Shown here: in pieces, positions 10,274 to 63,519 of the stretch
Position numbering within the stretch: the first letter of the stretch is position 1
Layout: each line of letters begins with the position of its first letter
DNA from: Marinicella sp.
Lineage (GTDB): Bacteria; Pseudomonadota; Gammaproteobacteria; Xanthomonadales; Marinicellaceae
Reading direction: 5' to 3'
DNA length: 64,000 nucleotides
Assembly: GCA_965230295.1 (NCBI GenBank)
Contig: OZ246001.1
Span: forward strand, 3,776,001-3,840,000
The notes under the pieces: model-generated
Seen by the model: the letters and a program-made list of their open reading frames with translations, nothing else
Told to the model about the DNA's origin: nothing
The model's database searches: none
Translations under genes and position numbers: made by a program

Positions 10274-10337
10274 TGCAACAATTTTAAAATTTATTGCAAC
10301 CAGCTTAATATCGCCCCTAAAACATTATTCATATTAT
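10274..10337 (+). promoter_or_regulatory. TGCAAC-N15-TGCAAC box with -10 element
   Basis: tgcaac 10274 and 10295 (21-bp period); TATTAT at 10332. Confidence 0.7.
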
Positions 10338-10421
10338 GTGTGTATGCACGATTTTTTCTGAATTTTCGTGAACTGAGAAAAATCAATCATTTGAATGGCT
10401 TAGATCTACTGATCAATATTA

Positions 10422-11825
10422 ATGAGGTATACCATGAATACAAAGGTTCTTAACAATAACAAAATTTTATTAACAACAGCAATATTAATGGAATTAACCA
10501 CTCGACCTACGACTGTCAACGCCGCCACTATCTTCGTCGACCAAGAAAATTGTCATTTAGCTTCAGCAATCGTTGCTGCAAATACTGATTCTGCTGTATT
10601 TGGTTGTACAGCTGGTTTTGGAGCAGATGAGATCGTTTTAAGCTCAAGAACCCAGATTGTTCTGAATGAGGCCCTGCCAATTATTAACAGTTCCATCACT
10701 ATACAAGGCAATGAATCAAGCATTGAAAGAAATAGTACAGATATATTCAGGGTGATAGATGTTCAGGCTGGTTCCTTAACTTTAAACGACGTTACTTTGA
10801 GTGGCGGTGCTTCTGAAAATTCAGGTTATAGGACGGATTATGGTGCAGGTATAAGGGTGTCATCTGGAAAACTGTATACAAACAATGCTATTGTTAAGAA
10901 CAACAGCGGAATTGGTGTTGCTGTATTGAACAATAGTATCGCAACCATCAACAACTCTGTGGTTGAAAATAATAACGGTTTGGCAACATATTTCAGCGGT
11001 GGAGGCGGGCTTCATATTGAAGGCAGCCAAGTAGATGTGCTCAACAGTGATATTTCAAATAATAACAACAATTCAACTGGGTTTGGTGGGGGTGGTGTCT
11101 ATATTTCAAATTACAATGCCCTATCAATTGTGAACATCAACAGCAGCAGTATTAATAACAACACTTCAATCCGCAGTGGTGGTGGAATAAGTGCCATTGC
11201 CAGTGGTGCAGGGGGGGCAGATGCTATTACTTTAAATATAAGAAACTCAACCATTAGTGGAAATACAACTGATGAAAATGGTGGAGGCATACACTGTAAC
11301 CTTATCAATTCATCAATCATCAGTAGTACAATCTCCGCAAACACAGCTACTGGATACAGGGGCGGTGGGATTTCATGCGGCATCAGTTTTTTACCAGCAG
11401 GATCTGTTGTTAACATTGAGCACAGCATTATATCTGGAAATATTGCGGAAATTGGTAGTGAGATTAACGATTTGGATTCGGTATTTTCAAATGGCTATAA
11501 CATCATAGGTCAGCTGGGTTACAATGGAATAGCAGGACCACTCACGCCTGTTGTATCAGATTTGGTGCCCACCGTTAGTATCGAAAATATAATCAAAAAC
11601 CTTGCTGATAACAGTTCTAACAATAACAAGGGTATGACTCATAATTTAGTGACTGCTAGCCCAGCCATTGACTTGATTAACAACAACATTGATTGCGAAA
11701 CAAGGGATCAAAACGGAGTAATCCGACCACTTGATGGAGATGGGTCCTCAACTAGCGAGTGCGATGCGGGTGCTGTTGAATACGAATTTCACTCTGATTT
11801 GATTTTCAGCGACGGCTTCGAATGA
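10422..11825 (+). CDS. Secreted parallel beta-helix protein with choice-of-anchor Q domain and DLIFSDGFE tail (start probably 10434)
   Basis: CHLASAIVAAN N-terminal motif, GGGI/NSTISGN repeats, C-terminal LADN...THNL...SPAID...DQNG..RPLDGDG...CDAGAVE. Confidence 0.85.
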   Translation: MRYTMNTKVLNNNKILLTTAILMELTTRPTTVNAATIFVDQENCHLASAIVAANTDSAVFGCTAGFGADEIVLSSRTQIVLNEALPIINSSITIQGNESSIERNSTDIFRVIDVQAGSLTLNDVTLSGGASENSGYRTDYGAGIRVSSGKLYTNNAIVKNNSGIGVAVLNNSIATINNSVVENNNGLATYFSGGGGLHIEGSQVDVLNSDISNNNNNSTGFGGGGVYISNYNALSIVNINSSSINNNTSIRSGGGISAIASGAGGADAITLNIRNSTISGNTTDENGGGIHCNLINSSIISSTISANTATGYRGGGISCGISFLPAGSVVNIEHSIISGNIAEIGSEINDLDSVFSNGYNIIGQLGYNGIAGPLTPVVSDLVPTVSIENIIKNLADNSSNNNKGMTHNLVTASPAIDLINNNIDCETRDQNGVIRPLDGDGSSTSECDAGAVEYEFHSDLIFSDGFE

Positions 11826-11843
11826 CTAACACGCCACCAATTT

Positions 11844-11913
11844 GTGCACTTATTGAAATTATATTTACTAACACTACCTTTAAATTATGTCATTAGATAA
11901 GTGCGCATTTTTT
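11844..11913 (+). terminator. Large-loop 3' hairpin (family member)
   Basis: gtgcacttat...ataagtgcgc followed by a T-tract, 18 bp after the stop. Confidence 0.55.
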
Positions 11914-12666
11914 CCATTTTTACCTTTTTACAATAACACTAAAAGCGACCTATGCTTTTATATTGTAAAAACATATAAAACAATAGTTAGTTTAATCCTA
12001 ATTTCACCACTATTACTTTTAATCCAATAGAAAGTGATTTTACTGTGAATGATTTAATTGCTTTTAGAAATTTTGACTGACTTATAATTACCTATTTACT
12101 GAATTTAATCCTTATACCAATTTTTTACTTTTTATTCCTGTTAATAAACAACACTATGGGTACGTCTTCAATTTCATCAATTCAATAAGATATATTCAAT
12201 TTGCTTACTATTTATTTTTTCTTGTATCACAATTTACAGATACTTACATCATTCCAAAAATCATAATTATCCCTTTGTTTTAAAATAACCAAAGTTATTT
12301 AAACATCATCGAAGTCATTGAGTGTTTTGACTTTATCTTCATCAAATGTATGGAAAGATAATTGCAATTAACCTATAGAAAAACGAGAACATAGCGCGTT
12401 CTTTAACACGATATTTATCAGTGTGTAAAACCCAAAAAATTTACACTAATAAAACAATTTCACTTACAATGACTGTGTGTGCTTTAAAAAATATTTTATC
12501 CATCATAAATTACTCAGGTAATGAATGATTTGTCATTCTTGTAATAACATTCGTCTTATCTGTTTTTGTGTTGGCATCTAAGGTTATGGAATCAGTTCAT
12601 CCAATGAGATTGATGATGTATAATTCTGGTGAATTCAATATCTATTGACTACGGTAATTAAACATT

Positions 12667-15600
12667 TTGAAAAAAATTATTTTTATAATATTTTTATGTT
12701 GTAGTTTTACAACCAATGCCAATAAATATTTTGGGCAGCCCCTTGCGGAAATATATACACCAAGTGAAATTCAAGGACATTTCCAAAACTGGTGTCTGTA
12801 TCAAACTAATAATGATTTCATCTACGTGTGTAATGGTAACAGTATTCGAGTCTGGGATGGCGAGTCATGGAGTTTGTTGAGGCTGCCGAATAATTTAGGT
12901 CCAAGGCAACTAACAGAATGGAAAGGGCAGATATATTTGGGATTACCAAAAGATTTAGGTCTATTGAGCGAAAATGGTCAAGGGGTAAAGCAATTCAAAA
13001 GTTTGCTTACTGATGATGAAACACTAGAAATTGATCAAATTTGGTCAGTGGCTGCCACAGAAGATTATTTGTACTTTGTTGATACTAGTCAAATTTTTGT
13101 TTGGGATAATGAAAACTTAACACAATATGACATCCCCGACTTTAAAAGCAAAGTTTACAAATTTAAAAATAAGCTGTATTTAAAAACTTATGATGACATA
13201 TATGTCTACGAAATAACACCCACAGGCCTAAATAAAACTAATTGGCAATTACCGGAGAGGGGTTTGATTCGAGGAATGTTTCAAACAGCATATGGTGATT
13301 TTATGGTCACCAACAACTTTGGTATATATTCTATAGGTTCTGAACTAGAACTGATCAAAAACCCCTTTAACTCAGACGTATTCATTTTTAACAGCATCCT
13401 CACAAATGATGGGTATTTATATGTTGCATCTATCAACAAGGGCCTTTTCATACTTGATCATAAACTAGATATTCGATTGAATTTGACGCAGTCAGACAAA
13501 TTTGGCATGAGCCAAGTGGCTGATGTTATCCAAGATCGACAAGGGAATATATGGGCGGCTGGTTCTCCAAATATAGTGGTTATGCAACCACCACACATAA
13601 TGGGTAAAATCGTATTTGATGGTGATAATAACACTGTTTTGAATATTAAAAATATAGGCGATGAAACTATTGCGCTTGGTCGAGGGGCTTACAAATTGTC
13701 TGATGATAATGAGAGGCATCAGGCAAAATTTAAACATTGGTTGGAATTCAGAACTGTCAATGATGTTATTGAATATGATTATGATATCCTGGTATTTGCC
13801 CATAGCACAGGGATACAAGTTGTCAATTATGTCAATGGCCAGGCAAGAAAAAAGCAAAACCTATTAACAGGAACTCATGTTAATTCGTTATTCCGTCACC
13901 CAAGGACATCTTTTATTTATGCAGCTTCAGATGATGGCCTATTTGAAATAAAACAAGAACGAAATCAATGGATTGTTGAGTCTGTAGATGGTGTTTCCGA
14001 AGATGTTAGTCGGTTGATAATGGGAGACCAAGGCTATTTATGGGTGGGCGATGATTATGGAAATATATTTCAAGTTGAACCCAGCCAAATTGGAACTTCT
14101 AGTAAATTAATCAGGGTGTTTACTGAAAAGAATGGAATAGCCCAAAGCAACGTTGTACCTTTTGTCATAAATAATCAAACCTATATTGGAACATTTGATG
14201 GCGCCATGCAATGGGATGAATTCAATGATAATTTACAAATGGCAGAAGGCTTGCCAGAGATTTTTACAACCAAAGGGCAAGACATTCACCGAGTTTACCA
14301 AGATCATGATAATAACACTTTTTACCGTATCGGTAACCACAGTGGGTTAGCAAAATTTAATCAAGAAAAATGGAGTATAAATGAAAAATTGTTTTTACCA
14401 TTTAAAGCTAATTCAATTCAATCATTTTTGAAGGTCGAATCGACTTTATATTTTGTTGTTCCAGGTGTAGGTGTCTATTATTTAAACCAACCCGAGCATT
14501 CGATTTTACCTCCACAAGGTAAATTACATTTTAGAGCCGTTGAAGATAAACACAAGGGAGAATTACTATTTGATAATGCTGATAACTTAGATTCAATAAA
14601 TCGTAACTATAATGACACTGCACTCCGCTTGCTTTTTGCTTTTACTGATTACTCCTTACCTAACAAAACTTTATACAGAAGTAGGGTTGTTGGGTCAATT
14701 TCTCCTTCATGGTCGGTATGGAATACAGAAAATTTTCGTGAAGTTGATATAACGAAGGGAGGAACTTACGAACTAGAAATCCAAGCTAAGGACGGTTGGG
14801 AAAGACTCTCTGAAATCAAAAGCATTACGTTTACTATTGAACCACCTTGGTTTGCTTCATTTTGGGCTTATACCGCTTATGCCATTCTATTTATAATTAT
14901 TAATATCTTGATTGCGAATTATTATTCGAGATACCGAAATATGAAACTTGAAAAGGCTAAGTTACAACTACAAAAAACAGTCAAGGAAAAAACAAAAAAT
15001 GTTTATATTAAGGCCATGGAACTTGAACAAACACAAATGGCAAAAGATCGTTTCTTTGATGATTTCTCTCACGAATTAAGAACCCCACTGTCCTTGGTAA
15101 TGGCACCTTTAGAACAGTTGAGAGACAAAGATAAGAATGATGATCGGATGTTAGATTTGGCAATTCAAAATGCAGATAAATTGAGAAACCAAGTCAATCG
15201 ATTGTTTCAGATCCATGATGCAAATTTTAACAGCAACGACCTGTCTAAATCAGTGGTAGATTTAAGGGCCCGGGTACAAGAATTGGTAAAAGAATTTATG
15301 CCTTGGTCGATTAAATTGAAGCAACACATGGAGTTAGTTACTAACAAGCAAGAAATATCATGTTTTTGTGATGCCGATAAAATGGATGCTGTATTTAGGA
15401 ACCTGTTAAGCAATGCAATCAAGTACAGTGGTCAACAATCAAATATAAATGTGAATATGGCGCACGATTCGGAGAAGGTTGTTGTTTCAGTAATAGATGA
15501 TGGACCAGGAGTTGCCCAGCAAGATCAACAAAAGGTCTTTTCTCGGGACTTCAAAAGCGATGAGAATAATCAAAGTGATCAACCAGCTGTTGGCATTGGT

Positions 15601-16524
15601 TTGTCTATCGTTAAAGATGTAGTAGAAGCGCATAATGGTTCGATCACATTAAGTACCAATCAGCCTCACGGGGCACATTTTATGGTAATGATTCCAACCG
15701 GGATGAACGCAAATTGTGCAACTATTGAGAATGAGTCAAGAAATGAGGAAGACTCAACCGAACAATTGCAATTACCTAAAAACGACATAATGACCATTAT
15801 GTTGGTTGAAGACAATGACGAATTAAGGGAATTTCTTATTTATGTGTTTGCCACATCATACAAAGTAGTTGACTATGCGAATCCAGTAGAGGCACTGAAG
15901 GATATTGATGAAATACTGCCTGACGTTATTGTCAGTGATGTCATGATGCCAGAAATGAACGGTATTGAATTCACTGTAGCAGTTAGGGAAAAAACAGTAT
16001 TTAGCGCGATACCGATCATTTTATTGACAGCCAAATCAACTCAAAGTGATGTGGAAAAAGGTTTAACCCTAGGGGCGACCGATTACATGGTTAAGCCATT
16101 TAGCCCCAAAGAATTGTTATTGAGGGTAGATAATCACATTAATACGCTTAAGTCGATCGTATCGCATTATAAAATACCTCTTAAAAGTGCTAAAGCTGTC
16201 AGTAAGACATTGCAAAAAATCAATGAAATCATAAAGAACAACTTACATGATACAAATTTCAGCACTTCAGCATTAGCAGAAATGATGTTTATGGATCGAA
16301 CCACGTTATTCCGTAAAATAAAAAAGGAGGTAGGACTCTCTCCTGTAAAATATATTAAATCCTTTAAAATGGAAGTAGCTGCTCAACTATTGATGGAAAA
16401 AGACGTAAGTGTTAGTGAAGTGGCTTATTTAACTGGATTTGATAGTTTGGCTTATTTTTCTGCCAATTTTAAAGCGCATTACCAACAAACACCTTCAGAA
16501 TATATAGCAAAGTTAGACAGGTAG
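12667..16524 (+). CDS. Hybrid two-component sensor histidine kinase / response regulator / AraC (HTCS)
   Basis: Signal peptide, beta-propeller sensor (QDRQGNIW), Y_Y_Y-like domain, TM helix, H-box SHELRTPL, N-box NLLSNAIKY, DDGPG, GIGL, receiver (VEDND, SDVMMP, KPF), AraC HTH (EVAYLTGFDSLAYFS...TPSEY). Confidence 0.95.
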   Translation: MKKIIFIIFLCCSFTTNANKYFGQPLAEIYTPSEIQGHFQNWCLYQTNNDFIYVCNGNSIRVWDGESWSLLRLPNNLGPRQLTEWKGQIYLGLPKDLGLLSENGQGVKQFKSLLTDDETLEIDQIWSVAATEDYLYFVDTSQIFVWDNENLTQYDIPDFKSKVYKFKNKLYLKTYDDIYVYEITPTGLNKTNWQLPERGLIRGMFQTAYGDFMVTNNFGIYSIGSELELIKNPFNSDVFIFNSILTNDGYLYVASINKGLFILDHKLDIRLNLTQSDKFGMSQVADVIQDRQGNIWAAGSPNIVVMQPPHIMGKIVFDGDNNTVLNIKNIGDETIALGRGAYKLSDDNERHQAKFKHWLEFRTVNDVIEYDYDILVFAHSTGIQVVNYVNGQARKKQNLLTGTHVNSLFRHPRTSFIYAASDDGLFEIKQERNQWIVESVDGVSEDVSRLIMGDQGYLWVGDDYGNIFQVEPSQIGTSSKLIRVFTEKNGIAQSNVVPFVINNQTYIGTFDGAMQWDEFNDNLQMAEGLPEIFTTKGQDIHRVYQDHDNNTFYRIGNHSGLAKFNQEKWSINEKLFLPFKANSIQSFLKVESTLYFVVPGVGVYYLNQPEHSILPPQGKLHFRAVEDKHKGELLFDNADNLDSINRNYNDTALRLLFAFTDYSLPNKTLYRSRVVGSISPSWSVWNTENFREVDITKGGTYELEIQAKDGWERLSEIKSITFTIEPPWFASFWAYTAYAILFIIINILIANYYSRYRNMKLEKAKLQLQKTVKEKTKNVYIKAMELEQTQMAKDRFFDDFSHELRTPLSLVMAPLEQLRDKDKNDDRMLDLAIQNADKLRNQVNRLFQIHDANFNSNDLSKSVVDLRARVQELVKEFMPWSIKLKQHMELVTNKQEISCFCDADKMDAVFRNLLSNAIKYSGQQSNINVNMAHDSEKVVVSVIDDGPGVAQQDQQKVFSRDFKSDENNQSDQPAVGIGLSIVKDVVEAHNGSITLSTNQPHGAHFMVMIPTGMNANCATIENESRNEEDSTEQLQLPKNDIMTIMLVEDNDELREFLIYVFATSYKVVDYANPVEALKDIDEILPDVIVSDVMMPEMNGIEFTVAVREKTVFSAIPIILLTAKSTQSDVEKGLTLGATDYMVKPFSPKELLLRVDNHINTLKSIVSHYKIPLKSAKAVSKTLQKINEIIKNNLHDTNFSTSALAEMMFMDRTTLFRKIKKEVGLSPVKYIKSFKMEVAAQLLMEKDVSVSEVAYLTGFDSLAYFSANFKAHYQQTPSEYIAKLDR

Positions 16525-16530
16525 ACTGTA

Positions 16531-16594
16531 TGCAACAAAGCTTATATTCACTGCAACAAGCATAATAACCCCTCTAATACATTCTGCGTAGGAT
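16531..16594 (+). promoter_or_regulatory. TGCAAC-N15-TGCAAC box with -10 element
   Basis: tgcaac 16531 and 16552; TAGGAT at 16589; begins 7 bp after the HTCS stop. Confidence 0.7.
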
Positions 16595-16694
16595 GTGACT
16601 CTACTGATTTATCGTTTTGAAAAAAATATAAATCTCTGAATTAACAGAATGAAAAACATTCAATTAACATGACATATCTGATGAGGAAAACGTA

Positions 16695-16920
16695 ATGAAA
16701 ATACTTAAAGTACCTCTTGCTGTGCATGGATGCATCGAGTTTGAATTTGATGAGTTTGAATTTAATTTATCAGGTTCTTCTGGTTGTTCCGCTATTAATG
16801 ATGGCAATGTTAAGGGCAAAAATCAGCGTAGAGGTAGAAGTATGTGGAATTTTGAAACTGGCAGCTATGTGATATTGAATGCATGGGAAAGAAAAACCCA
16901 ATTTTACTAGTGAAAATTAA
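16695..16920 (+). pseudogene. Internally deleted FG-GAP gene remnant
   Basis: 3' part (gaaactggcagctatgtgatatt...gggaaagaaaaacccaatttt) matches the 3' end of 17676-19256; flanked by the same promoter box and 3' hairpin. Confidence 0.65.
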
Positions 16921-16938
16921 TCACTAAGCAACGAGTAT

Positions 16939-17003
16939 GTGTGCACTTATCGAAAGCTTGTTTCCCCCCCCTTTTTTTTAGTTAGTAGATAAGGGCACAT
17001 TTT
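16939..17003 (+). terminator. Large-loop 3' hairpin (family member)
   Basis: gtgcacttatc...C/T-rich loop...gataagggcac followed by a T-tract. Confidence 0.55.
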
Positions 17004-17269
17004 AAATTCATTTAGGAAAAATGTATCAGGTTTTGAGGCATGCTAGATGAAACACAAAAGAAGGTCAATTTATTATAAAGGTGAATTTATCGTTAATGAT
17101 TTAATAACTGCACATAATTTTGAGTGACTCTTTAAAGTGCCACTCCTCCTAATTGTGCTCCAACCTTAAATTCTGGCAAATACAACTCACCTCGTGTATA
17201 ACAGAATGGTTGGAGCGCAATCCTTACGTTATACGTGCGGCTGACCACTAATTCGATCGAGTAACAAAT

Positions 17270-17530
17270 AGCATACAAGATACACATTTCAGCACTCAAA
17301 GTGTTTGTTAGTCGAAATGATGTTTATGTATCGAATCACTTTACCCCGTAAAATAAAAAAGATAATAGGTGCTCTCCTGTAAAACATAATAAAACCATTA
17401 ATATGTAATCAACTGCTTAACTATTGCTAAAAAGTTAGTCTGCGTTGGCGTAGTGGCTTACTTTCTTTCGATTTTAAAGCGTTATTGCTAATAAATACCT
17501 TCATAAAGTATAGCAAATTCAATCTAATAG
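17270..17530 (+). pseudogene. Decayed duplicate of the HTCS AraC-domain 3' end
   Basis: gatacacatttcagcact, gaaatgatgtttatg, ccgtaaaataaaaaag, ctctcctgtaaaa and attttaaagcg align with 16240-16524. Confidence 0.8.
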
Positions 17531-17536
17531 GCTTTC

Positions 17537-17600
17537 TGCAACAAAGCTTATATTCATGCAACAAGCATAATAATTTCCTCTCAAGCATTCTGTATAAAAT
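17537..17600 (+). promoter_or_regulatory. TGCAAC direct-repeat box with -10 element
   Basis: tgcaac 17537 and 17557 (20-bp period here); TAAAAT at 17595. Confidence 0.65.
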
Positions 17601-17675
17601 TCGTATCAGTGGTTTATCGTTTTTCGGTTTACAAAAGTATAAATCATGATTTAAACAAAATGAGAGAGAAATATC

Positions 17676-19256
17676 ATGGATAAAATTACATTTGTGTATA
17701 TGATTTCAAGTTTGCTTTTTCTAGCTATAAACGGTTTACTCAGTCCGAGCCGGAATATTAATTTAGCTGACATCAATGGAAACAACGGCTTGGTGATTCA
17801 TGGGGAGCAAACTTCAGATTTTTCAGGTTATTCGGTCAGTAGTGCAGGTGATGTTAATGGAGACGGGATTGATGACATAATTATTGGTGCTTTTGAACCA
17901 GATCAGAACACAAAATACAATACTGGGCGCAGTTATGTGGTTTTTGGTAGTGATCAAGGGTTTTCTAATCCATTGGGTTTGGAAAACCTGAATGGATCTA
18001 ACGGTTTTGTTATAAATGGTGCTGAACACAATGATTCATCGGGCATGTCAGTTGCCTCAGCAGGTGACTTTAATAACGATGGGGTTGGAGATTTGCTTAT
18101 AGGAGCACCTGATGCATCAACAGGCATTGGATCAGTTTATATCATTTGGGGTAACAGGGAAGAACAATTCCCCAGCCCATTTGAATTGTCAGACATTAAT
18201 GGTGTTAACGGACTGGTTATCCATGGCGAAGAAGTTCAAGGGAAACTGGGTTTTTATGTCAGTTCAGCGAGTGATGTTAATGGTGACGGAATCAATGATA
18301 TGATTATTAGCTCACCAAAATCGGATGGCAATGGTACTGTCGATTCTGGTGCTATTTATGTGATATTTGGGAATGAATTGGGGCTTCCAAACCCATTTCG
18401 TGTCGGCTCCATTAATGGGGTGAATGGATTTAAGATCAATGGAGTTCCAACTACTGGTGCTCAGTCTGGTTTTTCTGTTAGCAAAGCAGGTGATATTAAT
18501 GCTGACGGTATTTCTGACCTTCTAATTGGTGTTCCATTTGATTCTAGTAACGGTAATTTGTTGTCAGGAAAAGTATACATTATTTTTGGAAAAAATAATG
18601 TATACCCAAATCTCTTTGAACTCTCAAGTATAAATGGATTGAATGGCATTCAGATTAATGGAGAAAATCAGGATGATCATTTAGGTTATTCTGTCAGTTT
18701 GGCTGGCGATGTCAATGGCGATAGTATAGACGACATCATTCTGGGAGCGCCATTTGCACAAGCTAATAATAGCGTGCAAGCTGGTGCCGCATATGTGATA
18801 TTTGGCAGCAATAAAAGACTACCAAACCCATTCAATATATCTACTATCAATGGTTTGAACGGATTCAAGATCACTGGAAATATCATTGGAGGCAAGCTTA
18901 GTCATTCAGTAAGTGGTGGAAGCGATATCAATGGCGATGGCTTAACCGACATAATAATAGGAGAACCTGATTCTAGGGCAGGAAGGAGTCATGTAATTTT
19001 TGGAAGCAACGAGGATTTCTCTAACCCATATAGCGTTGACTCTATCAATGATTCAACTGGATATACCATTAACGGTGTTAATGGTGGTGATTTACTGGGA
19101 TTCTCAGTCAGTGGTGCTGGAGATTTTAACGATGATGGTATTGGTGACATTATATTAGGTGCACATGGTGCTGATCCAAATGATATTTTTGAAGCTGGTA
19201 ACAGCTATGTGATATTTGGGAAAGAACAACCCGTTTTTGCTAATGGATTTGATTAA
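17676..19256 (+). CDS. Secreted FG-GAP (integrin-alpha-like) 7-repeat beta-propeller protein, QPVFANGFD tail
   Basis: Seven G-x-SV...GD[VFI]NxDGxxDxxIGA...YVIFG repeats with Ca-binding DxNxDG loops. Confidence 0.9.
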   Translation: MDKITFVYMISSLLFLAINGLLSPSRNINLADINGNNGLVIHGEQTSDFSGYSVSSAGDVNGDGIDDIIIGAFEPDQNTKYNTGRSYVVFGSDQGFSNPLGLENLNGSNGFVINGAEHNDSSGMSVASAGDFNNDGVGDLLIGAPDASTGIGSVYIIWGNREEQFPSPFELSDINGVNGLVIHGEEVQGKLGFYVSSASDVNGDGINDMIISSPKSDGNGTVDSGAIYVIFGNELGLPNPFRVGSINGVNGFKINGVPTTGAQSGFSVSKAGDINADGISDLLIGVPFDSSNGNLLSGKVYIIFGKNNVYPNLFELSSINGLNGIQINGENQDDHLGYSVSLAGDVNGDSIDDIILGAPFAQANNSVQAGAAYVIFGSNKRLPNPFNISTINGLNGFKITGNIIGGKLSHSVSGGSDINGDGLTDIIIGEPDSRAGRSHVIFGSNEDFSNPYSVDSINDSTGYTINGVNGGDLLGFSVSGAGDFNDDGIGDIILGAHGADPNDIFEAGNSYVIFGKEQPVFANGFD

Positions 19257-19275
19257 CCATTAAGCAAGCAAGTTT

Positions 19276-19345
19276 GTGCTCTTATCGAAAGCTTGGTTTT
19301 TCCCCTTTCCCTTTTTATCCTAGTTAATAGATAAGAGCACTTTTT
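19276..19345 (+). terminator. Large-loop 3' hairpin (family member)
   Basis: gtgctcttatc...gataagagcac perfect 11-bp stem, C/T-rich loop, T-tract. Confidence 0.6.
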
Positions 19346-19649
19346 AAATTCACTGGTGGAAAATAGATCAAGTTTCGATGACATAAAAGATGAAACACAA
19401 AATAACATTAAATCATCCATGTTCAGCCTTTTTAGAAGCTACATTAAAGATATACAAATAAGATTAAGTCTAAAAAAGCTATAACTGCGTTCCAATCAAA
19501 TTTCTTAATTACTGATCTTTTTAGAATTTTAGGAATGGATTTAATTACTATTCCACCTGTATCTTATTTGTAAATTTTTACAATCTTATGTGGCAATTTA
19601 TTCTTTTCAATAAAATAACGTGACAAAAAAATGCTCATATTGCGATGTT

Positions 19650-19714
19650 TGAAACAATTCTCATGACCATCGCAACATTTACAATATGTGACCATAAAAA
19701 TTTTTAGATATTCT
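19650..19714 (+). promoter_or_regulatory. Degenerate TGCAAC box with -10 element
   Basis: tgaaac 19650 and cgcaac 19671; TATTCT at 19709. Confidence 0.5.
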
Positions 19715-19750
19715 TTCCTGCCTTATACCACACTAATCCAGAGGAGAAAA

Positions 19751-26259: not shown

Positions 26260-26323
26260 TGCAACAATTTCAATGCATTTGACAACAATGTTAATAATTA
26301 ATAATTATTTGCTGTACTAAAAT
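26260..26323 (+). promoter_or_regulatory. TGCAAC box with -10 element (orphaned)
   Basis: tgcaac 26260 and gacaac 26281; TAAAAT at 26318. Confidence 0.55.
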
Positions 26324-26864
26324 TTAGACATGCCATAAGTGTTTAAGACAATATGGAATTAGTAAAGAAAACAACTTAAGGCATTTTGCAATCGCGCCCT
26401 GAGAAATGAAGGCAGCTTTCTATCACACACTCACTAACCTGCTGGATTATCAATGGGCGCCTTTCAACTTCATGGAAAGGTTTAAGAGTCAACTGATTTT
26501 GTGATGAAATATCGTTTATATCACCGCACTTGAGTATTTAATTATTCTTAAATTTTGAAGCACATAAATTTAATAGGGCAGGTGTAATATTGAATTGTTA
26601 GCTCTAAGAATAAAATAACTTCAAAAAAATTATTTCAACCTATCGTGCTGACCTATCAATTGCATGTCATTCAACATCGTTACAATCCATTTTGTAGACC
26701 ACCACGACTACTAGTTCAGCTAGTAAGTGGTGGGATACCACAGTGCATCAATTTTAATTGAAATTGCAATTTTATTAATAACGACATCACATGCTAGAAA
26801 ATAAAATAATTGAATTAGGGTTCGCTTCTTAAAGCTAACTCAATTTTTTTGAATTTTAATATGT

Positions 26865-27814: not shown

Positions 27815-27879
27815 TGCAACAAAACTGATAGAAGTTGCAACGAACCTGATCGTTATTTTTTCATGTGCAAGTGTAAACT
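27815..27879 (+). promoter_or_regulatory. TGCAAC-N15-TGCAAC box with -10 element
   Basis: tgcaac 27815 and 27836; TAAACT at 27874. Confidence 0.75.
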
Positions 27880-29635: not shown

Positions 29636-29763
29636 GAATAAATTGTTTATTAAAAAGAATTCTCAGTTCTGAGGAGCAAGGCTGACCCTTTTGTGTATAT
29701 AGGCGTCAGACTGGGTTAGCCATTCTGGCAAATGTTATTTAATTAATAAAAATAAAGAAAGTT

Positions 29764-35136: not shown

Positions 35137-35200
35137 TGCAACAAAACTGATGGCTGCTGCAACGAAGCTTATAGTTGATTTTTGTGTGTAAATGTAAACT
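35137..35200 (+). promoter_or_regulatory. TGCAAC-N15-TGCAAC box with -10 element
   Basis: tgcaac 35137 and 35158; TAAACT at 35195. Confidence 0.75.
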
Positions 35201-38990: not shown

Positions 38991-39055
38991 AGCAACAAAA
39001 TTGATTGATGTTGCAACTAACTTCATAGTTGATTTTTCATGTGTATGTGTAAACT
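38991..39055 (+). promoter_or_regulatory. TGCAAC box with -10 element
   Basis: agcaac 38991 and tgcaac 39012; TAAACT at 39050. Confidence 0.7.
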
Positions 39056-44708: not shown

Positions 44709-44773
44709 CGCAACATCATTGATAGTGATTGCAACAAAAACCATATTCATGCTTGCATGTTGAGAGTTAATCT
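44709..44773 (+). promoter_or_regulatory. TGCAAC box with -10 element
   Basis: cgcaac 44709 and tgcaac 44730; TAATCT at 44768. Confidence 0.6.
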
Positions 44774-46532: not shown

Positions 46533-46596
46533 TGCAACAAAGCTTATATTCAACACAACAAAATTAATAACCTCTCCGGAACGTCCTAAATAAAAT
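46533..46596 (+). promoter_or_regulatory. TGCAAC box with -10 element
   Basis: tgcaac 46533 and cacaac 46554; TAAAAT at 46591; spacer nearly identical to 16531/17537. Confidence 0.65.
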
Positions 46597-50081: not shown

Positions 50082-50146
50082 AGTTTAATTCTGAATGCAA
50101 AATATGCATTAGCTAATTTATTGCAAATTCTTTCATTATTGTTGCG
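50082..50146 (-). promoter_or_regulatory. TGCAAC-type box with -10 element driving the lipoprotein gene
   Basis: Minus strand CGCAAC (50146) and TGCAAT (50125), 21-bp period; TAAACT starting 38 bp further (50087). Confidence 0.5.
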
Positions 50147-50666
50147 TATATTGTCACAAGGCTCTTTCAGAGGACGCAATATTGGTTTGACCTGCAACAT
50201 CTTCCTGATACATATAAGGTTTACCTTATTTAGCATCTGCATAGGATCAATATTCTCGCAAGGTTATATACTGGTTAAATGATAATTTAGGCCCGTCACC
50301 CAACTCAAAAACTACCTAGCATCAAAGTTTATATCAATCACAACATTCCTGATAACTCAGGAATGTCACGCCGTAATACCATTGCAGTTAATAAATTTAC
50401 GAGCGCCTTCTAATAGGGAAGACGTAATTGATGCATTCAAAAAGTAAAGCGGATGCTTTTAAAGTATTGTTGTTTTTCAACTGTCAGAATGACAGAGTTT
50501 AATGTGAAATTTGACTTGACTATAAAAGAACTCAATGATTCAGAGCTTAACATGAATGGACAAACACTCATTTATCAGTTAGCGCTGTCAGTGGTGTCGC
50601 TGATGTGAATGGCAATGACGACCTCATTGGATTGTATACGCATTAATCTAATAAATAAGGTTTTTT

Positions 50667-54424: not shown

Positions 54425-54495
54425 GACAACAATTTTACCAATAGATGCATCAAATTTGATAACTACTTAATAACAACTTTACACAAAGATACGAT
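54425..54495 (+). promoter_or_regulatory. Degenerate TGCAAC box
   Basis: gacaac 54425 and tgcatc 54446 (21 bp); region 54330-54590 parallels 57830-58085; -10 not at the usual distance. Confidence 0.45.
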
Positions 54496-54669: not shown

Positions 54670-55872
54670 ATGAAAATGAAATTATTAGTCACATTATTAA
54701 CCATATTTATGTTTTTTAACATAGATGTTTGGGCTTTTGATTGTTCGAACCCAGATGTTTCTGTAGCTGAGTGTAATGCGTTAAATGATATGTACGGCCC
54801 TTTAGGCATAGCGAGTTCATCATTAATTGCTGTAGATATAATTAGTTGGGGAGAAGAAACTGACAATACTGTTTGTGACATATCAGTAATTGAATGCGAC
54901 TCATCTATCCCTAAACGTGCTGTTCATTTACTTTTATCTCGCAAAGACTTGATAGGCACTATCCCCGACCTGAGTGCTTTGGCCAGTTTGCAACGCCTTG
55001 ACCTGAGTAATAATAATCTCAGTGGTCACATCCCTGACCTGAGTGCCTTGACCAATTTGAAATTCCTTTACCTGAATCAAAATAATCTTAGTGGCCACAT
55101 CCCTGAGCTAGATGCCTTGACTAATTTGCAACAACTTTACCTACATATTAACGATCTCAGAGGTCCCATCCCTGACTTGAGCGTCTTAACTAATTTGAAA
55201 CACCTTCTCCTATATCGTAACAATCTGAGTGGCCCCATTCCTGACTTGAGCGCCTTGACCAGTTTATATAGCCTTATTCTGGAGGATAACAATCTCAATG
55301 GCACCATTCCAGACTTGAGTGCCTTGACTAATTTGCAAAACCTTTACCTAAGTCGTAACGACCTCAATGGTCCCATCCCTAACTTGAGTACCTTGACCAA
55401 TTTACAATACCTTTACCTGAGTGGTAATGATTTCAGTGGCCCCATTCATCGTTTAAGTACCTTAACCAGTTTGAAACACCTAACCTTAAACGATAACAAT
55501 TTCAGTGGTACCATCCATAGCTTGCGCACTTTGATCAATTTGCAAGTTCTTTTCCTGAGTGATAACAATCTTAGTGGTCCCATCCCTGACTTGAGCGCCT
55601 TAACCAATTTGCAACTCTTTTATTTGGCTAACAACTATTTCTTTGGACACTTTCCCGATCTCAGGCAAACAGATTTGCCAGAAGGAAATACGTTGAATTT
55701 TCATTCAAACTGCATAGAGCCGAATGTTAATAACTTTGTTAATGACTGGACTAATGCCAGAACTAGTCCTGCTAATGGCTTTGATAATCAACACGCAGAT
55801 ATAAATACATGCTTGGACGTGTATGCAGACTTCATCATTACAGATACGGTTTTCATCGATACATTTGAGTAA
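54670..55872 (+). CDS. Secreted leucine-rich repeat protein (~11 x 23-aa plant-type-like LRR), DTVFIDTFE tail
   Basis: LxxLxLxxNxLSGPIPDLSALTN repeats between Cys-containing caps (ECNALNDMY...CD...C; NC...C). Confidence 0.9.
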   Translation: MKMKLLVTLLTIFMFFNIDVWAFDCSNPDVSVAECNALNDMYGPLGIASSSLIAVDIISWGEETDNTVCDISVIECDSSIPKRAVHLLLSRKDLIGTIPDLSALASLQRLDLSNNNLSGHIPDLSALTNLKFLYLNQNNLSGHIPELDALTNLQQLYLHINDLRGPIPDLSVLTNLKHLLLYRNNLSGPIPDLSALTSLYSLILEDNNLNGTIPDLSALTNLQNLYLSRNDLNGPIPNLSTLTNLQYLYLSGNDFSGPIHRLSTLTSLKHLTLNDNNFSGTIHSLRTLINLQVLFLSDNNLSGPIPDLSALTNLQLFYLANNYFFGHFPDLRQTDLPEGNTLNFHSNCIEPNVNNFVNDWTNARTSPANGFDNQHADINTCLDVYADFIITDTVFIDTFE

Positions 55873-55977: not shown

Positions 55978-57738
55978 ATGAAACCAATAATAACTTTACT
56001 ATTTATTTTTTCTTTCTCATCTTCTTTTGCTGGTGGTGATATTGATCCATTTGTCATTACCATCACTACCACACCCCGCAACCAAGCAGACACAAACACT
56101 TTATTCAAATACGATTTACCAACTACTGAATATGAATACTCATATGATGTTGATTGGGACTACAATGGAGTCTTTGAAGCAGATGAAGTAGATGTAAATG
56201 GAATTTTAGAACATGATTACGGTAATCCTGGAGAATATACCATTGCTATTAAAGGGATATTTCCTAAATTTGGTTCATCACGCCCTGATCATATAGATCA
56301 ATTAGTAAGCATAGATCAATGGGGAGATATTGTTTGGAAAAGTTTTGAAAGCTCTTTTCGTGGTCAATATGATATCCGACCCGCTAGTTATATTGTAAAT
56401 GCAACAGACATTCCTGACTTGTCAATGGTTAACTCTCTATCAGAAATGTTTTTTATTTCAAGCCAAGCTAATCCAGATGTGACTGGGTGGGATACATCCA
56501 ATGTTACTGACATGAGCTTTATGTTTTCTGTTACTGACGCAGCCAACCCAAATGTGAGTGGATGGGATACATCCAACGTTACTGACATGAGCTTTATGTT
56601 TTCTTTTGCTGACGCAGCCAACCCAAATGTAAGTGGGTGGGATACCTCCAATGTTACTGACATGAGCGGTATGTTTTTTGATTCTGCCATAGCCAACCCA
56701 GATGTGAGCTTATGGGATACATCCAACGTTACTGACATGAGCTTTATGTTTTCTTTTGCTGACGCAGCTAACCCAGATGTGAGTGGGTGGGATACATCCA
56801 ATGTTACTAAAATGGGCGATATGTTTGCAATAGCAAGATTAGCTAACCCAGATGTGAGTGGATGGGATACATCCAATGTTACTGACATGACCCGTATGTT
56901 TTATGGTGCTGATGCAGCAAACCCAGATGTGAGTTTATGGGATACATCCAATGTTACTGACATGACCCGCATGTTTTTTGGTGCTATCTTAGCCACCCCA
57001 GATGTGAGTTTATGGGATACATCCAATGTTGCTGATATGAATGAATTGTTCGCTTATGCAGGATCTGCTAATCCTGATTTAAGAAACTGGGTTATTGAAA
57101 ATGTTAATAGCATGAATGACATGTTTAACTCTAACAAAATGAAACGCAGTAATTATGAAGCCGCACTGATTTCTTTTGCGACGCAATTTACGAATAATAA
57201 TGTTAATTTTGCTGCTGGTTCTTCTCTGTATTGCTCATCAGCTGCTGAAAATGCAAAAACCTTTCTTACAGGCCCTACCAAGAATTGGACGATAGTCGAT
57301 GGATCTGATGGTTTACCAAGTTGCGACATAAATGATGTTTCTGTTTCTATAGAAAGTAATCGTAGCCTACTTGCCCCAGGAGGTATGGTTACTTACCACA
57401 TCAGTATTAAAAATGATGGGGATAGGGATATTGATGATTTGAATGTGATCACCAATACAATGTTATTAACCAACTTGAATTGGGGATGTGAGGCCGTCAG
57501 CGCCACATGTCAAGATTCAGCTGGTAATGGTCCAATTTTGCACAGTAGTACAATAAATTCAGGTGGTGAAATCACTTATATTATCAATGCTACTAATGCA
57601 GGTATGAATGGTGAATATGCTATGATTTCTATTACAGCACAAAGCATCGATACCCCAGATGATTTTCTAAGAGATAATACTGCAACTTTGAATAGCAGAA
57701 CATCAGATGATATTATTTTTTATAATTCACTCGATTAA
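55978..57738 (+). CDS. Secreted DUF285/BspA-type repeat protein with DUF11-like domain, DIIFYNSLD tail
   Basis: Signal peptide, 8 full NPDVSxWDTSNVTDMxxMF repeats, VTYHISIKNDG Ig-like domain; paralogue of 7482. Confidence 0.9.
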   Translation: MKPIITLLFIFSFSSSFAGGDIDPFVITITTTPRNQADTNTLFKYDLPTTEYEYSYDVDWDYNGVFEADEVDVNGILEHDYGNPGEYTIAIKGIFPKFGSSRPDHIDQLVSIDQWGDIVWKSFESSFRGQYDIRPASYIVNATDIPDLSMVNSLSEMFFISSQANPDVTGWDTSNVTDMSFMFSVTDAANPNVSGWDTSNVTDMSFMFSFADAANPNVSGWDTSNVTDMSGMFFDSAIANPDVSLWDTSNVTDMSFMFSFADAANPDVSGWDTSNVTKMGDMFAIARLANPDVSGWDTSNVTDMTRMFYGADAANPDVSLWDTSNVTDMTRMFFGAILATPDVSLWDTSNVADMNELFAYAGSANPDLRNWVIENVNSMNDMFNSNKMKRSNYEAALISFATQFTNNNVNFAAGSSLYCSSAAENAKTFLTGPTKNWTIVDGSDGLPSCDINDVSVSIESNRSLLAPGGMVTYHISIKNDGDRDIDDLNVITNTMLLTNLNWGCEAVSATCQDSAGNGPILHSSTINSGGEITYIINATNAGMNGEYAMISITAQSIDTPDDFLRDNTATLNSRTSDDIIFYNSLD

Positions 57739-57927: not shown

Positions 57928-57991
57928 TGCAACAATTTTATCACTTATTGCAACAGTCTTAATATCGACTTTGGTTTTTCTTCAATAAAAT
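57928..57991 (+). promoter_or_regulatory. TGCAAC-N15-TGCAAC box with -10 element
   Basis: tgcaac 57928 and 57949; TAAAAT at 57986. Confidence 0.75.
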
Positions 57992-58107: not shown

Positions 58108-58197
58108 CAATAGGTTAGATTACAATAGGTTAGATTACAATAGGTTAGATTACAATAGGTTAGATTACAATAGGTTAGATTACAATAGGTTAGATTA
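58108..58197 (+). repeat. Perfect 15-bp tandem repeat (caataggttagatta)x6
   Basis: Directly visible; ends 1 bp before ATG 58199. Confidence 0.97.
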
Positions 58198-58198
58198 T

Positions 58199-59835: not shown

Positions 59836-59899
59836 TGCAACAAGATTGAAGACCTTTGCATCAAATCATATAACTATTTTCCTTCCAGCCTAATAGACT
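59836..59899 (+). promoter_or_regulatory. TGCAAC box with -10 element
   Basis: tgcaac 59836 and tgcatc 59857; TAGACT at 59894. Confidence 0.6.
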
Positions 59900-59924: not shown

Positions 59925-60440
59925 ATGTCTTTAAAACACAGGAGTAGTTCAATGATCTCAAAAAATCAAAACGGAGCCGCAATAGGCTTTTATTTTGCTG
60001 CCTTTACCTTCAATGGAGACAATGGCTTTCGGCTGGACGGTGGAGTTGGTGTGGATTCCATGTTTGGAAGTGCACTCAGCGAAGCAAAAGATGTGAATCT
60101 AGATGGTATAGATGACATCATAATTGGCTCATCGATTGGTTTTGTGGGCTCAGTTCTAGCTGCGGGTAAAAGTTATGTTGTATTCGGTAACGATGAGGGA
60201 GTGAGCCATCCTTTAAATATTTCTGAATTAAATGGGAGCAACGGCTTTTCCATTTTGGGAGCTGATGTCAATGGATATCTGGGAACCAGCGTCAGCGGAA
60301 TTGGTGATTTCAATGATGATGGAATTGGAGATGTGATGATGAGTGCACCACGAGCGGATGTTGGTGGAGAAAACGAAACAGGTAAAAGCTTTATCATATT
60401 CGGAAATGAACAGGCCATCTTTGTCAATGGTTTTGACTGA
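59925..60440 (+). pseudogene. Truncated FG-GAP gene (last two blades), QAIFVNGFD tail
   Basis: Two repeats (DVNLDGIDD, DFNDDGIGD), no intact signal peptide. Confidence 0.7.
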
Positions 60441-60542: not shown

Positions 60543-60581
60543 AATAAATATGAATTATTTGGTCATAGTTATTTTCAATAA

Positions 60582-61400: not shown

Positions 61401-61722
61401 TTTGGCTACAAAAGAAATATTACCTGAATCTAACTCATTGGAGTTTTGCGCACATTCCCTCTAAATTCACATATTTTTTGCTAAGTGATTGATTGTGAAT
61501 GTCATGTATTTGTTAATAGAACAATGGTCAAAAAATGTGATCATCATTGTTTTTTGAAGATTACAACGACACCCATTCTGACCAGTTTTAATCCTAACAT
61601 TTATAATGTATCTAATCTAATGTTTACAACTTTAAGTACTGAACCAATAATCATTCAAAGTTATCGGTGGCTATTCAATAATTGACCCAAAAAATTAATT
61701 TAATTCTTAAATACAATAAGGA

Positions 61723-61788
61723 GTGCACTTATTTACTGACAAGAGTGGAAAGGGAAAATATAAAGAGTCTAGCTTTCGATAAGTGCAC
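61723..61788 (-). terminator. Large-loop 3' hairpin (family member)
   Basis: Minus strand gtgcacttatcgaaagct...ttttccctttccactc...ataagtgcac, 18 bp after the 61807 stop. Confidence 0.55.
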
Positions 61789-61806
61789 AAACTGGTTGTT
61801 TAATGA

Positions 61807-63387
61807 TTAATCAAATTCAAACCCGTTAGTAAAAATGGCTGATTCTTTGCCAAAGATCACATAGCTTCTACCAGGTGATGTATCAGCCGGACCTGCATCA
61901 GGAGCCCCAATGATCAAATCATCAAACCCATCATCATTGACATCACCAGCTGAACTGACTGAAAAACCAGAGGAGTCAGCTGTATTTTCACCATTGATAA
62001 CAAAGCCATTTTTACCATTTATTGAGGACAGTTCAAACGGATTGGGTAAACCACTAGCACTGCCAAAAATCACATAGCTTTTTCCTGCATCTGTATTACC
62101 ATTTGGATCGGCAAGATTGGCTCCAATAATCAAATCAAAAATTCCATCACCATTGACATCACCCGCTGAACTGACAGAGTGACCTGACTCATCACCTGTA
62201 TTTTCACCATTGATAACAAAGCCATTTTTACCATTTATTGAGGACAGTTCAAACGGATTGGGTAAACCACTGGCACTGCCAAAAATCACATAGCTTTTAC
62301 CTGCATTTGTCTTACCATTTGGATCGGCAAGTTTAGCTCCAATTATCAAATCATCAATCCCATCGTCATTGACATCACCTGCTGAACTGACAGAAAAGCC
62401 CAAATAATCATCAATATTTTCACCATTGATAACTAGACCAATCGGGCTAGTTAGACTAGACAGAGTTAACGGATTAGGAAAACCACTATTCCTATTCCTG
62501 CCAAAGATCAAATAGCTTTTACCATCGCTTTCTGCTCCAGGTGCCCCTACAATTAAATCATCAACCCCATCATCATTAATATCACCAGCTGAGCTAACTG
62601 AACGGCCTGACCAATCATTTTCATTTTCGCCTTCGATAACAAACCCATTTTCATCTTTGAGATTTGATAGGTTTAGCGATCCCGAAAAACCACTTTTACT
62701 GCCAAAAACCACATAGCTTTTACCTGCAGATGATTCGTTATTCGGGCTTGCAGAAAAGGCCCCAATAATTAAATCAACAACCCCATCACCGTTTACGTCA
62801 CCAGCAGAACTGACTGAATAACCCGAATAATCATCTTCATTTTCGCCATTAATCATAAAACCATCCACGCCATAGGGAAATGAAAGATCAATCGGATTAG
62901 GTAAATCATCCTCACTGCCATACACCACATAACTTTTACCAGCTTTTGACTGTGCGCCATAAGCTCCAATGATCAAGTCATCAATCTCATCGCCATTGAC
63001 ATCACCTGCTGAACTAACTGAAATACCTGAAAAATAGAACCTATTAACACCATTGGCAACAAAACCATTCTCACCATCAAGAGCTGAAAGGCTCAACAGC
63101 TTGGGAAAATCACCCTCACTGCCATACACTACATAGCTTTTACCAGCATTAAATCTACCACCTAAACCAGCGCTAAAAGCCCCAATGATCAAATCATCAA
63201 TTCCATCACCATTGATATCACCAGCTGAACTGACTGAAAAACCAGAGGAATCACCTTCATTTTCGCCGTTCATAACAAAGCCGTTGCTGCCATCAATATC
63301 TTCTAAGTTAAGACTTGAATAATACTCAGCAAATCCATCAGTAGAAATAAGTATCAAAGTAAAAGTTATATAAATAAATGTTTTCAT
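61807..63387 (-). CDS. Secreted FG-GAP 7-repeat protein, SAIFTNGFEFD tail
   Basis: Signal peptide GFA-E, seven repeats; blades 5-6 share a near-identical duplicated segment. Confidence 0.92.
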   Translation of the reverse strand: MKTFIYITFTLILISTDGFAEYYSSLNLEDIDGSNGFVMNGENEGDSSGFSVSSAGDINGDGIDDLIIGAFSAGLGGRFNAGKSYVVYGSEGDFPKLLSLSALDGENGFVANGVNRFYFSGISVSSAGDVNGDEIDDLIIGAYGAQSKAGKSYVVYGSEDDLPNPIDLSFPYGVDGFMINGENEDDYSGYSVSSAGDVNGDGVVDLIIGAFSASPNNESSAGKSYVVFGSKSGFSGSLNLSNLKDENGFVIEGENENDWSGRSVSSAGDINDDGVDDLIVGAPGAESDGKSYLIFGRNRNSGFPNPLTLSSLTSPIGLVINGENIDDYLGFSVSSAGDVNDDGIDDLIIGAKLADPNGKTNAGKSYVIFGSASGLPNPFELSSINGKNGFVINGENTGDESGHSVSSAGDVNGDGIFDLIIGANLADPNGNTDAGKSYVIFGSASGLPNPFELSSINGKNGFVINGENTADSSGFSVSSAGDVNDDGFDDLIIGAPDAGPADTSPGRSYVIFGKESAIFTNGFEFD

Positions 63388-63455
63388 AATATCTCTCTAG
63401 TCTTCAAGGAAATTATATTTCGTCAGTTGACTAGCTTTAAGTCTGTTGAATACAA

Positions 63456-63519
63456 ATTTTATTTTGGATGCTTCAAAAGTGCTGTGGAATATGTTGCAAT
63501 GGGTATTGACTTTGTTGTA
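63456..63519 (-). promoter_or_regulatory. TGCAAC box with -10 element
   Basis: Minus strand TACAAC (63519) and TGCAAC (63498); TAAAAT starting at 63461 (37 bp). Confidence 0.65.

Follow-up and report, generated by a model that had tools for sequence, protein, structure and literature searches.

The genome of Marinicella sp. carries a low-GC island in which one direct-repeat element recurs as part of a promoter, mostly in front of genes for secreted repeat proteins. The stretch of DNA that we analysed, called the window below, comprises 64,000 nucleotides (positions 3,776,001-3,840,000) of the single 4,008,074-bp contig OZ246001.1. The G+C content of the window is 37.3%, compared to 44.0% for the whole contig. 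All coordinates are window positions, and those beyond its end are given in window-equivalent numbering. We found 19 copies of the element, 18 of them in the window and one 9.6 kb beyond it. Judging from the sequence, it is fairly probable that these are activator-dependent sigma-70 promoters of a single regulon confined to the island, and that their most likely binder is a hybrid two-component system (HTCS) protein encoded in the island at 12667-16524 on the plus strand. The battery of secreted repeat proteins would then probably be switched on together.

A dimeric promoter element confined to the island

A first-pass annotation of this DNA listed 15 pairs of TGCAAC half-sites repeated at 21 bp, and all 15 pairs are present where it placed them, on the strands it gave. 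The regularity is looser than its wording implied, as both hexamers are exact at a distance of 21 bp in only five pairs (10274, 16531, 27815, 35137, and 57928). At 17537 both hexamers are exact and lie 20 bp apart. In the remaining nine pairs, one or two positions deviate, as in TGAAAC/CGCAAC at 19650 or GACAAC/TGCATC at 54425. The five exact TGCAAC-N15-TGCAAC dimers compare with a mean of 0.02 over 100 dinucleotide-preserving shuffles of the window, and this number was reached in 0 of the 100. A single TGCAAC is not enriched in the window (47 observed versus 43.7 expected), indicating that the signal resides in the pairing and the spacing. Alignment of the 30 half-sites of the listed sites gave the 17-bp consensus tGCAACAA-N3-T-N-ATA, which agrees with the half-site TGCAACA-N4-TNATA proposed earlier. 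The information peaks at positions 1 to 7 (GCAACAA), 11, and 13 to 15 (T-N-ATA), also when all 19 sites are aligned, so that the half-site has two conserved blocks one helical turn (10 bp) apart. The half-sites are arranged as direct repeats, with a 21-bp period in 18 of the 19 sites and the 20-bp period of 17537 in the other.

The exact dimer occurs five times in the whole genome, each time within the window. For a more sensitive scan, a matrix of the 17-bp half-site was used as a dimer with 20- to 22-bp spacing on both strands. At a score of at least 24 bits, the 4.008 Mb yielded 19 matches, that is, the 15 listed sites and four additional ones at 7066, 26744, 50318, and 73622 (L001:9622), all on the plus strand, and none lies outside 7066-73685. 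The first-pass annotation had proposed such a scan as a check, and its outcome is that the motif is not randomly placed in the genome. When the threshold was lowered to 16 bits, there were 24 matches at the 21-bp spacing versus 1 to 6 at each of 13 other spacings. Because the matrix was trained on the listed sites, the scan was repeated with each promoter cluster held out in turn, the 19 promoters falling into 13 such clusters by their ungapped flank identity. In this setup, 17 of the 19 held-out sites scored above every position in the approximately 3.93 Mb outside the island, on both strands. One of these is 7066, with 26.5 versus an outside-island maximum of 22.2. The two weakest sites, 19650 and 50146, were each equalled by one outside position. 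A sequence-only covariance model built from the 69-column promoter alignment returned 19 matches in its own genome with E values of 2.9e-5 or lower, which is a circular result, as these are the training sites. The next matches in this genome had E values of at least 0.07, and the 43 other genomes of the family gave nothing above 22.6 bits. We found no third upstream half-site at any consistent offset, and no other 6-mer was robustly enriched at a 21-bp period when the whole genome was searched.

The distance between the repeats and the -10 box is conserved as well. In 18 of the 19 sites, 37 or 38 bp separate the first base of the proximal half-site from the start of a TAnnnT hexamer. The count of 14 out of 15 in the first-pass annotation was correct, the site at 54425 being the exception in both sets. 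With one representative for each independent cluster, the hexamer is present at +37 or +38 in 12 of 13 cases, for a background frequency of 0.038 (binomial p ~1e-16). All 19 sites face the downstream open reading frame (ORF), as had been claimed for the original set, and the distance from the distal half-site to the first ATG-started ORF of at least 60 aa is 84 to 422 bp in 18 of them and 617 bp for 26260. The -10 hexamers match TATAAT at a mean of 4.3 of 6 positions. The best TTGACA match at 16- to 18-bp spacing has a mean of 2.6 of 6 and coincides with the 3' end of the proximal half-site. For a transcription start approximately 7 nt beyond the hexamer, the two half-sites would begin near -70 and -49. 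The earlier description of an island-wide set of AraC-type promoters is borne out by these data: the direct repeats have a 21-bp period, the half-sites of 17 bp are bipartite, and the proximal one abuts -35.

The RpoD of the host has 613 aa, is of the proteobacterial type, and contains the Sigma70_ner region. Of 14 control genomes, only those of E. coli and Caulobacter have this region. With such an RpoD, it is appropriate to read the -10 hexamers as sigma-70 elements, although HTCSs are typically found in Bacteroidota, and a Bacteroidota host with TAnnTTTG-type promoters is ruled out. The possibility that the repeats are recombinase sites or transposon ends was also ruled out, as they are direct repeats at a fixed distance from a -10 box and stand before genes across 66 kb.

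The candidate regulator and the alternatives

The island HTCS is a protein of 1285 aa with a signal peptide, a periplasmic sensor part, and a transmembrane segment around residues 735-760; the signal peptide and the transmembrane segment can be seen in the sequence. These are followed by Pfam matches to HisKA (792-848), HATPase_c (902-1011), Response_reg (1044-1154), and HTH_18 (1203-1280), so that the receiver (REC) domain is joined to an AraC-type DNA-binding domain (DBD; HTH_18/HTH_AraC). The N-terminal part of approximately 730 aa contains a single weak Reg_prop repeat (21.4 bits, with a cut-off of 20.4), and no match to a Y_Y_Y domain was obtained in residues 1-800. We found no other recognisable transcription-factor domain in the island, based on 57 ORFs of at least 80 aa in the window and its flanks, several of which had no domain match at all. 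The genome has 18 HTH_18 matches, 4 in proteins of HTCS size and 14 in small AraC-family proteins. The DNA-binding domain of the island HTCS is at most 33% identical to any of the 17 others, and the helix DRTTLFRKIK of its first helix-turn-helix motif (HTH1) occurs in none of them. In the three other proteins of HTCS size, the HTH1 recognition helices differ from it and the DNA-binding domains are only 26 to 33% identical to that of the island protein, so that a contribution of paralogous HTCSs, which the first-pass annotation had left as an option, is unlikely. Near the genes for these three proteins there is only one striking 21-bp repeat, GGCACAAAATTAT...GTCACAAAATTAT at genome positions 474945-474990, with 14 of 16 positions identical, close to the HTCS paralogue at 470388-474137 on the minus strand. 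This may be the operator of a different HTCS.

HTCS homologues are present in 40 of the 44 genomes of the family, and in three other species a similar site follows the HTCS gene. The best full-length homologue, in G004, is 33% identical, and 137 bp past its stop codon we found TGCAACAAAATTTAAAGCATT-TGCAACACC with a TAnnnT hexamer at +37, followed by a gene for a 1699-aa HYR-domain protein with the same C-terminal tag as many island proteins (see below). In G014, where the homologue is cut by the contig end and is 42% identical over 715 aa, TGCAACA...CGCAACA lies approximately 8 bp past the stop codon, again before a tagged HYR protein (1726 aa). Both repeats fit TGCAAC-N15-[TC]GCAAC. In G034, whose HTCS has a DNA-binding domain 49% identical to that of the island protein, TGCATCA...TGCAACA comes after the stop codon. 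The HTH1 helix DRTTLFRKIK is common to the HTCSs of G004, G014, and the island, with DRSALFRKVK as its counterpart in G034. The helices of more distant HTCSs are different, and a scan of 14 additional loci gave no site of at least 17 bits. Similar sites with TAnnnT at +38 are also present before tagged genes in G031 and G032 (316 aa), G033 (1007-aa Kelch protein), and G040 (1745-aa HYR protein). The exact pattern TGCAAC-N15-TGCAAC is unspecific across the family, with matches in 38 of 44 genomes that are mostly in coding-looking sequence, and it was therefore replaced by matrix and profile scans. The operator type is thus a family trait, usually with one or a few copies in a genome and with an expansion to 19 in this one. 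A search with the HTCS protein in species-representative genomes retained 80 loci, 24 to 34% identical and almost all from Bacteroidota, and none of these 80 is an orthologue of the island HTCS. The DNA-binding domain gave 8 loci on metagenome contigs, none with DRTTLFRKIK and none with the site. One partial metagenome contig shows 50% identity over 58 residues of this domain.

Based on its co-location with the promoters, the uniqueness of its domain, and the conserved adjacency of HTCS gene and site, we infer that the island HTCS is the binder. The choice made in the first-pass annotation can be kept in the sense that this protein is the best candidate activator of the 19 promoters, and we hold this with somewhat more confidence than doubt. 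In the mechanism that we propose, the HTCS would sense a periplasmic ligand, and phosphate would then pass from HisKA to the REC domain of the same protein, which would free two tethered AraC domains for DNA binding. One AraC-type domain would recognize GCAAC (positions 1-5) and T-N-ATA (positions 11-15) of a half-site with its two helix-turn-helix motifs in adjacent major grooves, and the two domains would lie along one face of the DNA at a distance of two turns. The proximal domain may touch RNA polymerase at the -35 position, which would be class II activation as for XylS at Pm. The two 17-bp half-sites would thus stand in for an unusable -35 element, next to a reasonable TAnnnT at -10. The geometry suggests activation rather than repression.

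It could be argued that the shared sequence is simply a remnant of promoters that were copied together with paralogous FG-GAP genes, without any common regulator. FG-GAP paralogues do make up most of the target genes, and clear promoter paralogues exist (16531, 17537, and 46533; 27815, 35137, and 38991). The clusters with more than one member are 16531, 17537, 46533, and 63519; 27815, 35137, and 38991; and 7066 and 10274. Among the 13 unrelated clusters, however, the motif columns are 74% identical over 161 between-cluster pairs, for a random expectation of 28.7%, whereas the identity is 31% in the intra-site spacers, 29% in the 38 bp upstream, 32% between site and -10, and 29% downstream. The value of 74% is somewhat inflated, as the motif columns were chosen from the same data, and the random-level flanks are the informative part. 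The -10 distance is likewise kept in all clusters but one, the motif is also found before genes that do not encode FG-GAP proteins (DUF285, LRR, choice-of-anchor Q, and HZS-alpha-like with the genes that follow it), and similar sites precede unrelated tagged genes in other genera. The conservation of the motif is footprint-like and is not left over from promoter duplication, which makes an explanation by copying without a regulator very improbable.

It is also possible, but unlikely, that the regulon is real and that its binder is encoded outside the island; the candidates would be any of the 14 small proteins of the AraC family, a different HTCS, or a response regulator of the LytTR type. Several observations point this way and weigh against the island HTCS: besides the 17 other AraC-type proteins, the genome has 12 LytTR proteins, none of them in the island, and LytTR regulators bind 9-bp repeats with a 12-bp spacer, which also gives a 21-bp period. 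The HTCS gene itself has no such site in front of it. Moreover, there is no HTCS within approximately 10 kb of the similar sites in G031 and G033, nor on the site-bearing contigs of G040 (8 kb) and G032 (5.7 kb). The proposed regulon is further weakened by 54425, where TAnnnT is absent at +37/38 and the nearest one is at +44, by 16531 and 26260, which have no intact gene directly behind them, and by the REC loop of the HTCS, discussed next. On the other hand, the motif is confined to the island, so a chromosomal regulator would be left without other targets, and no LytTR or second AraC gene is present in the island; the closest AraC gene lies approximately 26 kb beyond the island end, and the closest LytTR gene approximately 98 kb before the window. 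A half-site of 16 to 17 bp with two blocks 10 bp apart is an AraC pattern and not the 9-bp LytTR box, and the adjacency of HTCS stop codon and site in three other species tracks the shared recognition helix. Another possibility is that the island HTCS binds the sites but mainly represses, or that it binds when unphosphorylated. The alpha3-beta4 loop of its REC domain (residues ~1093-1125) has SAIP, while Bacteroides HTCSs have S/CHIP and all three other HTCSs of the same genome have SHIP. According to PMC11253607, non-consensus motifs are tied to a loss of REC-DBD inhibition, and one repressing HTCS is cited there. We consider this quite unlikely, as sites centred upstream of -35, together with a poor -35 and a good -10, form an activation layout and not one of occlusion. 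The SAIP loop may mean that the control of the island HTCS differs from the Bacteroides model. Five more distant homologues of the subfamily (L126, L128, L133, L135, and L138) have the loops QTLP, KTIP, NTIP, QNIP, and KIIP. In the closest homologues, those of G004, G014, and G034, this loop escaped the pattern search.

Promoters and genes of the island

The motif-bearing span extends from 7066 to approximately 73,700 and contains about 16 FG-GAP repeat genes or fragments. In addition there are two DUF285 genes, two LRR genes, and genes for CotH/LTD, choice-of-anchor-Q, HZS-alpha-like, Sortilin/BNR, and GST proteins and for the HTCS. No SusC/SusD or glycoside-hydrolase domains were detected in the 57 ORFs. 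Most of the products have a signal peptide and a C-terminal tag, [IVL]F-x-[NDS]-G-F-[DE], seen as D-[LV]-IF-x-[DN]-GF-[DE] and sometimes followed by 1 to 4 residues. Examples are the products of 10422-11825, 17676-19256, 27983-29635, 46679-48268, and 61807-63387 (minus strand). A search with the tag pattern, which is approximate, with a few clearly false matches and a few island genes missed, gave about 74 ORFs in the genome, of which only 17 are in the island. Other genera of the family also have proteins with this tag at the C-terminus. The tag is thus lineage-wide, and the motif covers the island subset only. The first-pass annotation had the tagged secretome as a whole co-activated; this can be upheld for the island subset, not for the tagged proteins elsewhere in the genome, and the first gene behind 19650, 26744, and 50146 is untagged. 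In the product of 10422-11825 the tag comes directly after the choice-of-anchor-Q domain. Domains of this type sit next to C-terminal sorting signals, and the tag may be an undescribed sorting or secretion signal.

The promoters are on the plus strand unless stated otherwise. The first, 7066..7129 (half-sites 7066 and 7087, -10 TAAGCT at 7124), is upstream of the DUF285 gene 7482-9752, and the second, 10274..10337 (half-sites 10274 and 10295, -10 TATTAT at 10332), is upstream of the gene for the tagged choice-of-anchor-Q protein 10422-11825. The promoter 16531..16594 (half-sites 16531 and 16552, -10 TAGGAT at 16589) begins 7 bp past the HTCS stop codon, and behind it there is only a decayed copy of the FG-GAP gene (region 16531-17536). 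Here 16484-16652 and 17490-17663 share 73% identity, and 16850-17062 shares 75% with 19187-19405, the 3' end of the FG-GAP gene. The FG-GAP gene 17676-19256 is preceded by 17537..17600 (half-sites 17537 and 17557, -10 TAAAAT at 17595). The weakest site, 19650..19714 (-10 TATTCT at 19709), stands before an untagged gene run from the ATG at 19751, with genes for an HZS-alpha-like (19688-21940), an AHSA1 (22017-22451), and a Sortilin/BNR protein (22805-26059). Two motif promoters follow in tandem, 26260..26323 (half-sites 26260 and 26281, -10 TAAAAT at 26318) and 26744..26807 (half-sites 26744 and 26765, -10 TAAAAT at 26802). The latter is upstream of an untagged ORF of 188 to 192 aa (26865-27443). 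Within 600 bp downstream of 26260 there is no ORF of at least 60 aa, and Rfam gave no family there or anywhere else in the window. The 26260 promoter is possibly a relic, or it may give rise to a transcript that is small or non-coding.

The next promoters mainly precede FG-GAP genes. A run of four such genes (27983-35045) lies downstream of 27815..27879 (half-sites 27815 and 27836, -10 TAAACT at 27874), the pair 35559-37154 and 37281-38879 downstream of 35137..35200 (half-sites 35137 and 35158, -10 TAAACT at 35195), and the gene 39401-41038 downstream of 38991..39055 (AGCAAC/TGCAAC, -10 TAAACT at 39050). The promoter 44709..44773 (CGCAAC/TGCAAC, -10 TAATCT at 44768) is upstream of an FG-GAP fragment (44824-45084) and the ORF 45154-46269, and 46533..46596 (TGCAAC/CACAAC, -10 TAAAAT at 46591) is upstream of the FG-GAP gene 46679-48268. 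Two divergent promoters come next. On the minus strand, 50082..50146 (CGCAAC at 50146, TGCAAT at 50125, -10 TAAACT at 50087-50082) is upstream of an untagged 400-aa ORF (48789-50009, minus), and on the plus strand 50318..50382 (AGCATC/CACAAC, -10 TACCAT at 50377) has behind it a split FG-GAP gene (50667-52254) and the gene for the CotH/LTD protein (52579-54300). The split gene looks broken or truncated, with overlapping ORFs 50667-51284 and 51154-52254, and 44824-45084, 33223-33540, and 59925-60440 are single-repeat FG-GAP fragments. The site 54425..54495, with TACGAT at 54490, is upstream of the LRR gene 54670-55872 and the DUF285 gene 55978-57738. The promoter 57928..57991 (half-sites 57928 and 57949, -10 TAAAAT at 57986) is upstream of another LRR gene, whose ATG is at 58199. 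Between this promoter and the ATG there is a perfect tandem repeat of 15 bp x 6.0 at 58108-58197, with the unit CAATAGGTTAGATTA. It sits in the predicted leader, and a leader of variable length is possible. The last two promoters in the window are 59836..59899 (TGCAAC/TGCATC, -10 TAGACT at 59894), upstream of the short FG-GAP ORF 59925-60440, and, on the minus strand, 63456..63519 (TACAAC at 63519, TGCAAC at 63498, -10 TAAAAT at 63461-63456), upstream of the FG-GAP gene 61807-63387. The 19th site, at 73622, is the one 9.6 kb past the window end.

The left edge of the island has two tyrosine-recombinase genes (396-1637 and 3246-4196), which are to the left of the motif-bearing span. Beside them, at the left edge of the low-GC region, are genes for a GmrSD_N protein (4318-5451) and a RiboL-PSP HEPN protein (5448-6242), and these genes next to the integrases (396-6242) are likely a defence pair. 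The island is split by a Tn7/Mu-like module on the minus strand (L001:583-6722, window-equivalent 64583-70722), just before a 5'-truncated FG-GAP gene. The products of this module are an integrase-like protein, one that is unknown, an AAA_22 ATPase, a protein whose C-terminal domain is of the Mu-transposase type, and a second unknown protein.

Comparison with known systems and significance

A close parallel is XylS at the Pm promoter. As described in PMC4514859 and PMC5481539, the XylS site is TGCA-N6-GGNTA-N6-TGCA-N6-GGNTA, two 15-bp direct repeats, and one monomer binds each repeat with two helix-turn-helix motifs in adjacent major grooves. The two systems share a pair of direct-repeat half-sites with a 21-bp period, bipartite half-sites with TGCA first and promoter-distal and the second block about one helical turn further on, and a proximal site that reaches the -35 position. 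The second block is T-N-ATA in the island and GGNTA for XylS. Furthermore, the island candidate is a membrane HTCS of 1285 aa that would work by phosphotransfer, whereas XylS is a soluble protein of approximately 300 aa with an effector-binding domain, and there are 19 island promoters compared to one. Another close parallel is found in the predicted operators of Bacteroides thetaiotaomicron HTCSs. Ravcheev et al. (2013; PMC3878776) predicted operators for 16 Bacteroides HTCSs, direct repeats averaging 21 bp apart, such as two 16-bp sites with a 5-bp spacer. The island shares this operator class with them, and also the regulator architecture of sensor, histidine kinase, REC, and AraC and a regulator gene that adjoins its targets. 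PMC11253607 reports that REC-DBD fragments of HTCSs bind target promoter DNA in electrophoretic mobility shift assays, under a REC-DBD lock marked by the S/CHIP motif, and that a minority of true HTCSs carry non-consensus motifs in its place, as the island protein does with SAIP. Other differences from the Bacteroides HTCSs are the proteobacterial-type RpoD of the host and the targets, which are secreted FG-GAP, LRR, DUF285, CotH, and HYR proteins, with no SusC/SusD or glycoside-hydrolase domains detected in the scanned ORFs. LytTR operators of the AgrA/ComE type also consist of direct repeats with a 21-bp period upstream of -35, but the island half-site is 16 to 17 bp long, with two blocks, and there is no LytTR gene in the island. 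The mechanism is of a known kind, and the island is an unusually large new example of it in an unexpected lineage. To our knowledge, the number of defined HTCS operators is small, and most of them were predicted computationally in Bacteroides.

At this locus, one operator is available in 19 natural variants that share a fixed promoter geometry and lie beside the presumed regulator. This makes it a ready test bed for how a membrane kinase uses its tethered AraC domains to read DNA and to activate sigma-70 polymerase. The locus would place HTCS-type control on secreted repeat proteins rather than on sugar use, in a lineage with a proteobacterial-type RpoD, and a single regulator would be a handle for finding the condition under which the FG-GAP, LRR, and DUF285 proteins are produced. 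We also put forward a broader idea, which is tentative and rather doubtful. The island HTCS may belong to a distinct non-Bacteroidota subfamily without the S/CHIP lock that was recruited to secreted, tagged binding proteins of the beta-propeller, Ig-like, and LRR types, and it may have been expanded by co-duplication of promoters and genes in the low-GC island. If this were true, the module of the congeners would be one HTCS, one operator, and one giant HYR protein, compared to 19 operators and about 25 genes here, and the island would be a snapshot of a regulon growing by tandem duplication. The organism would then have an inducible, diversifying, adhesin-like repertoire under the control of one extracellular cue.

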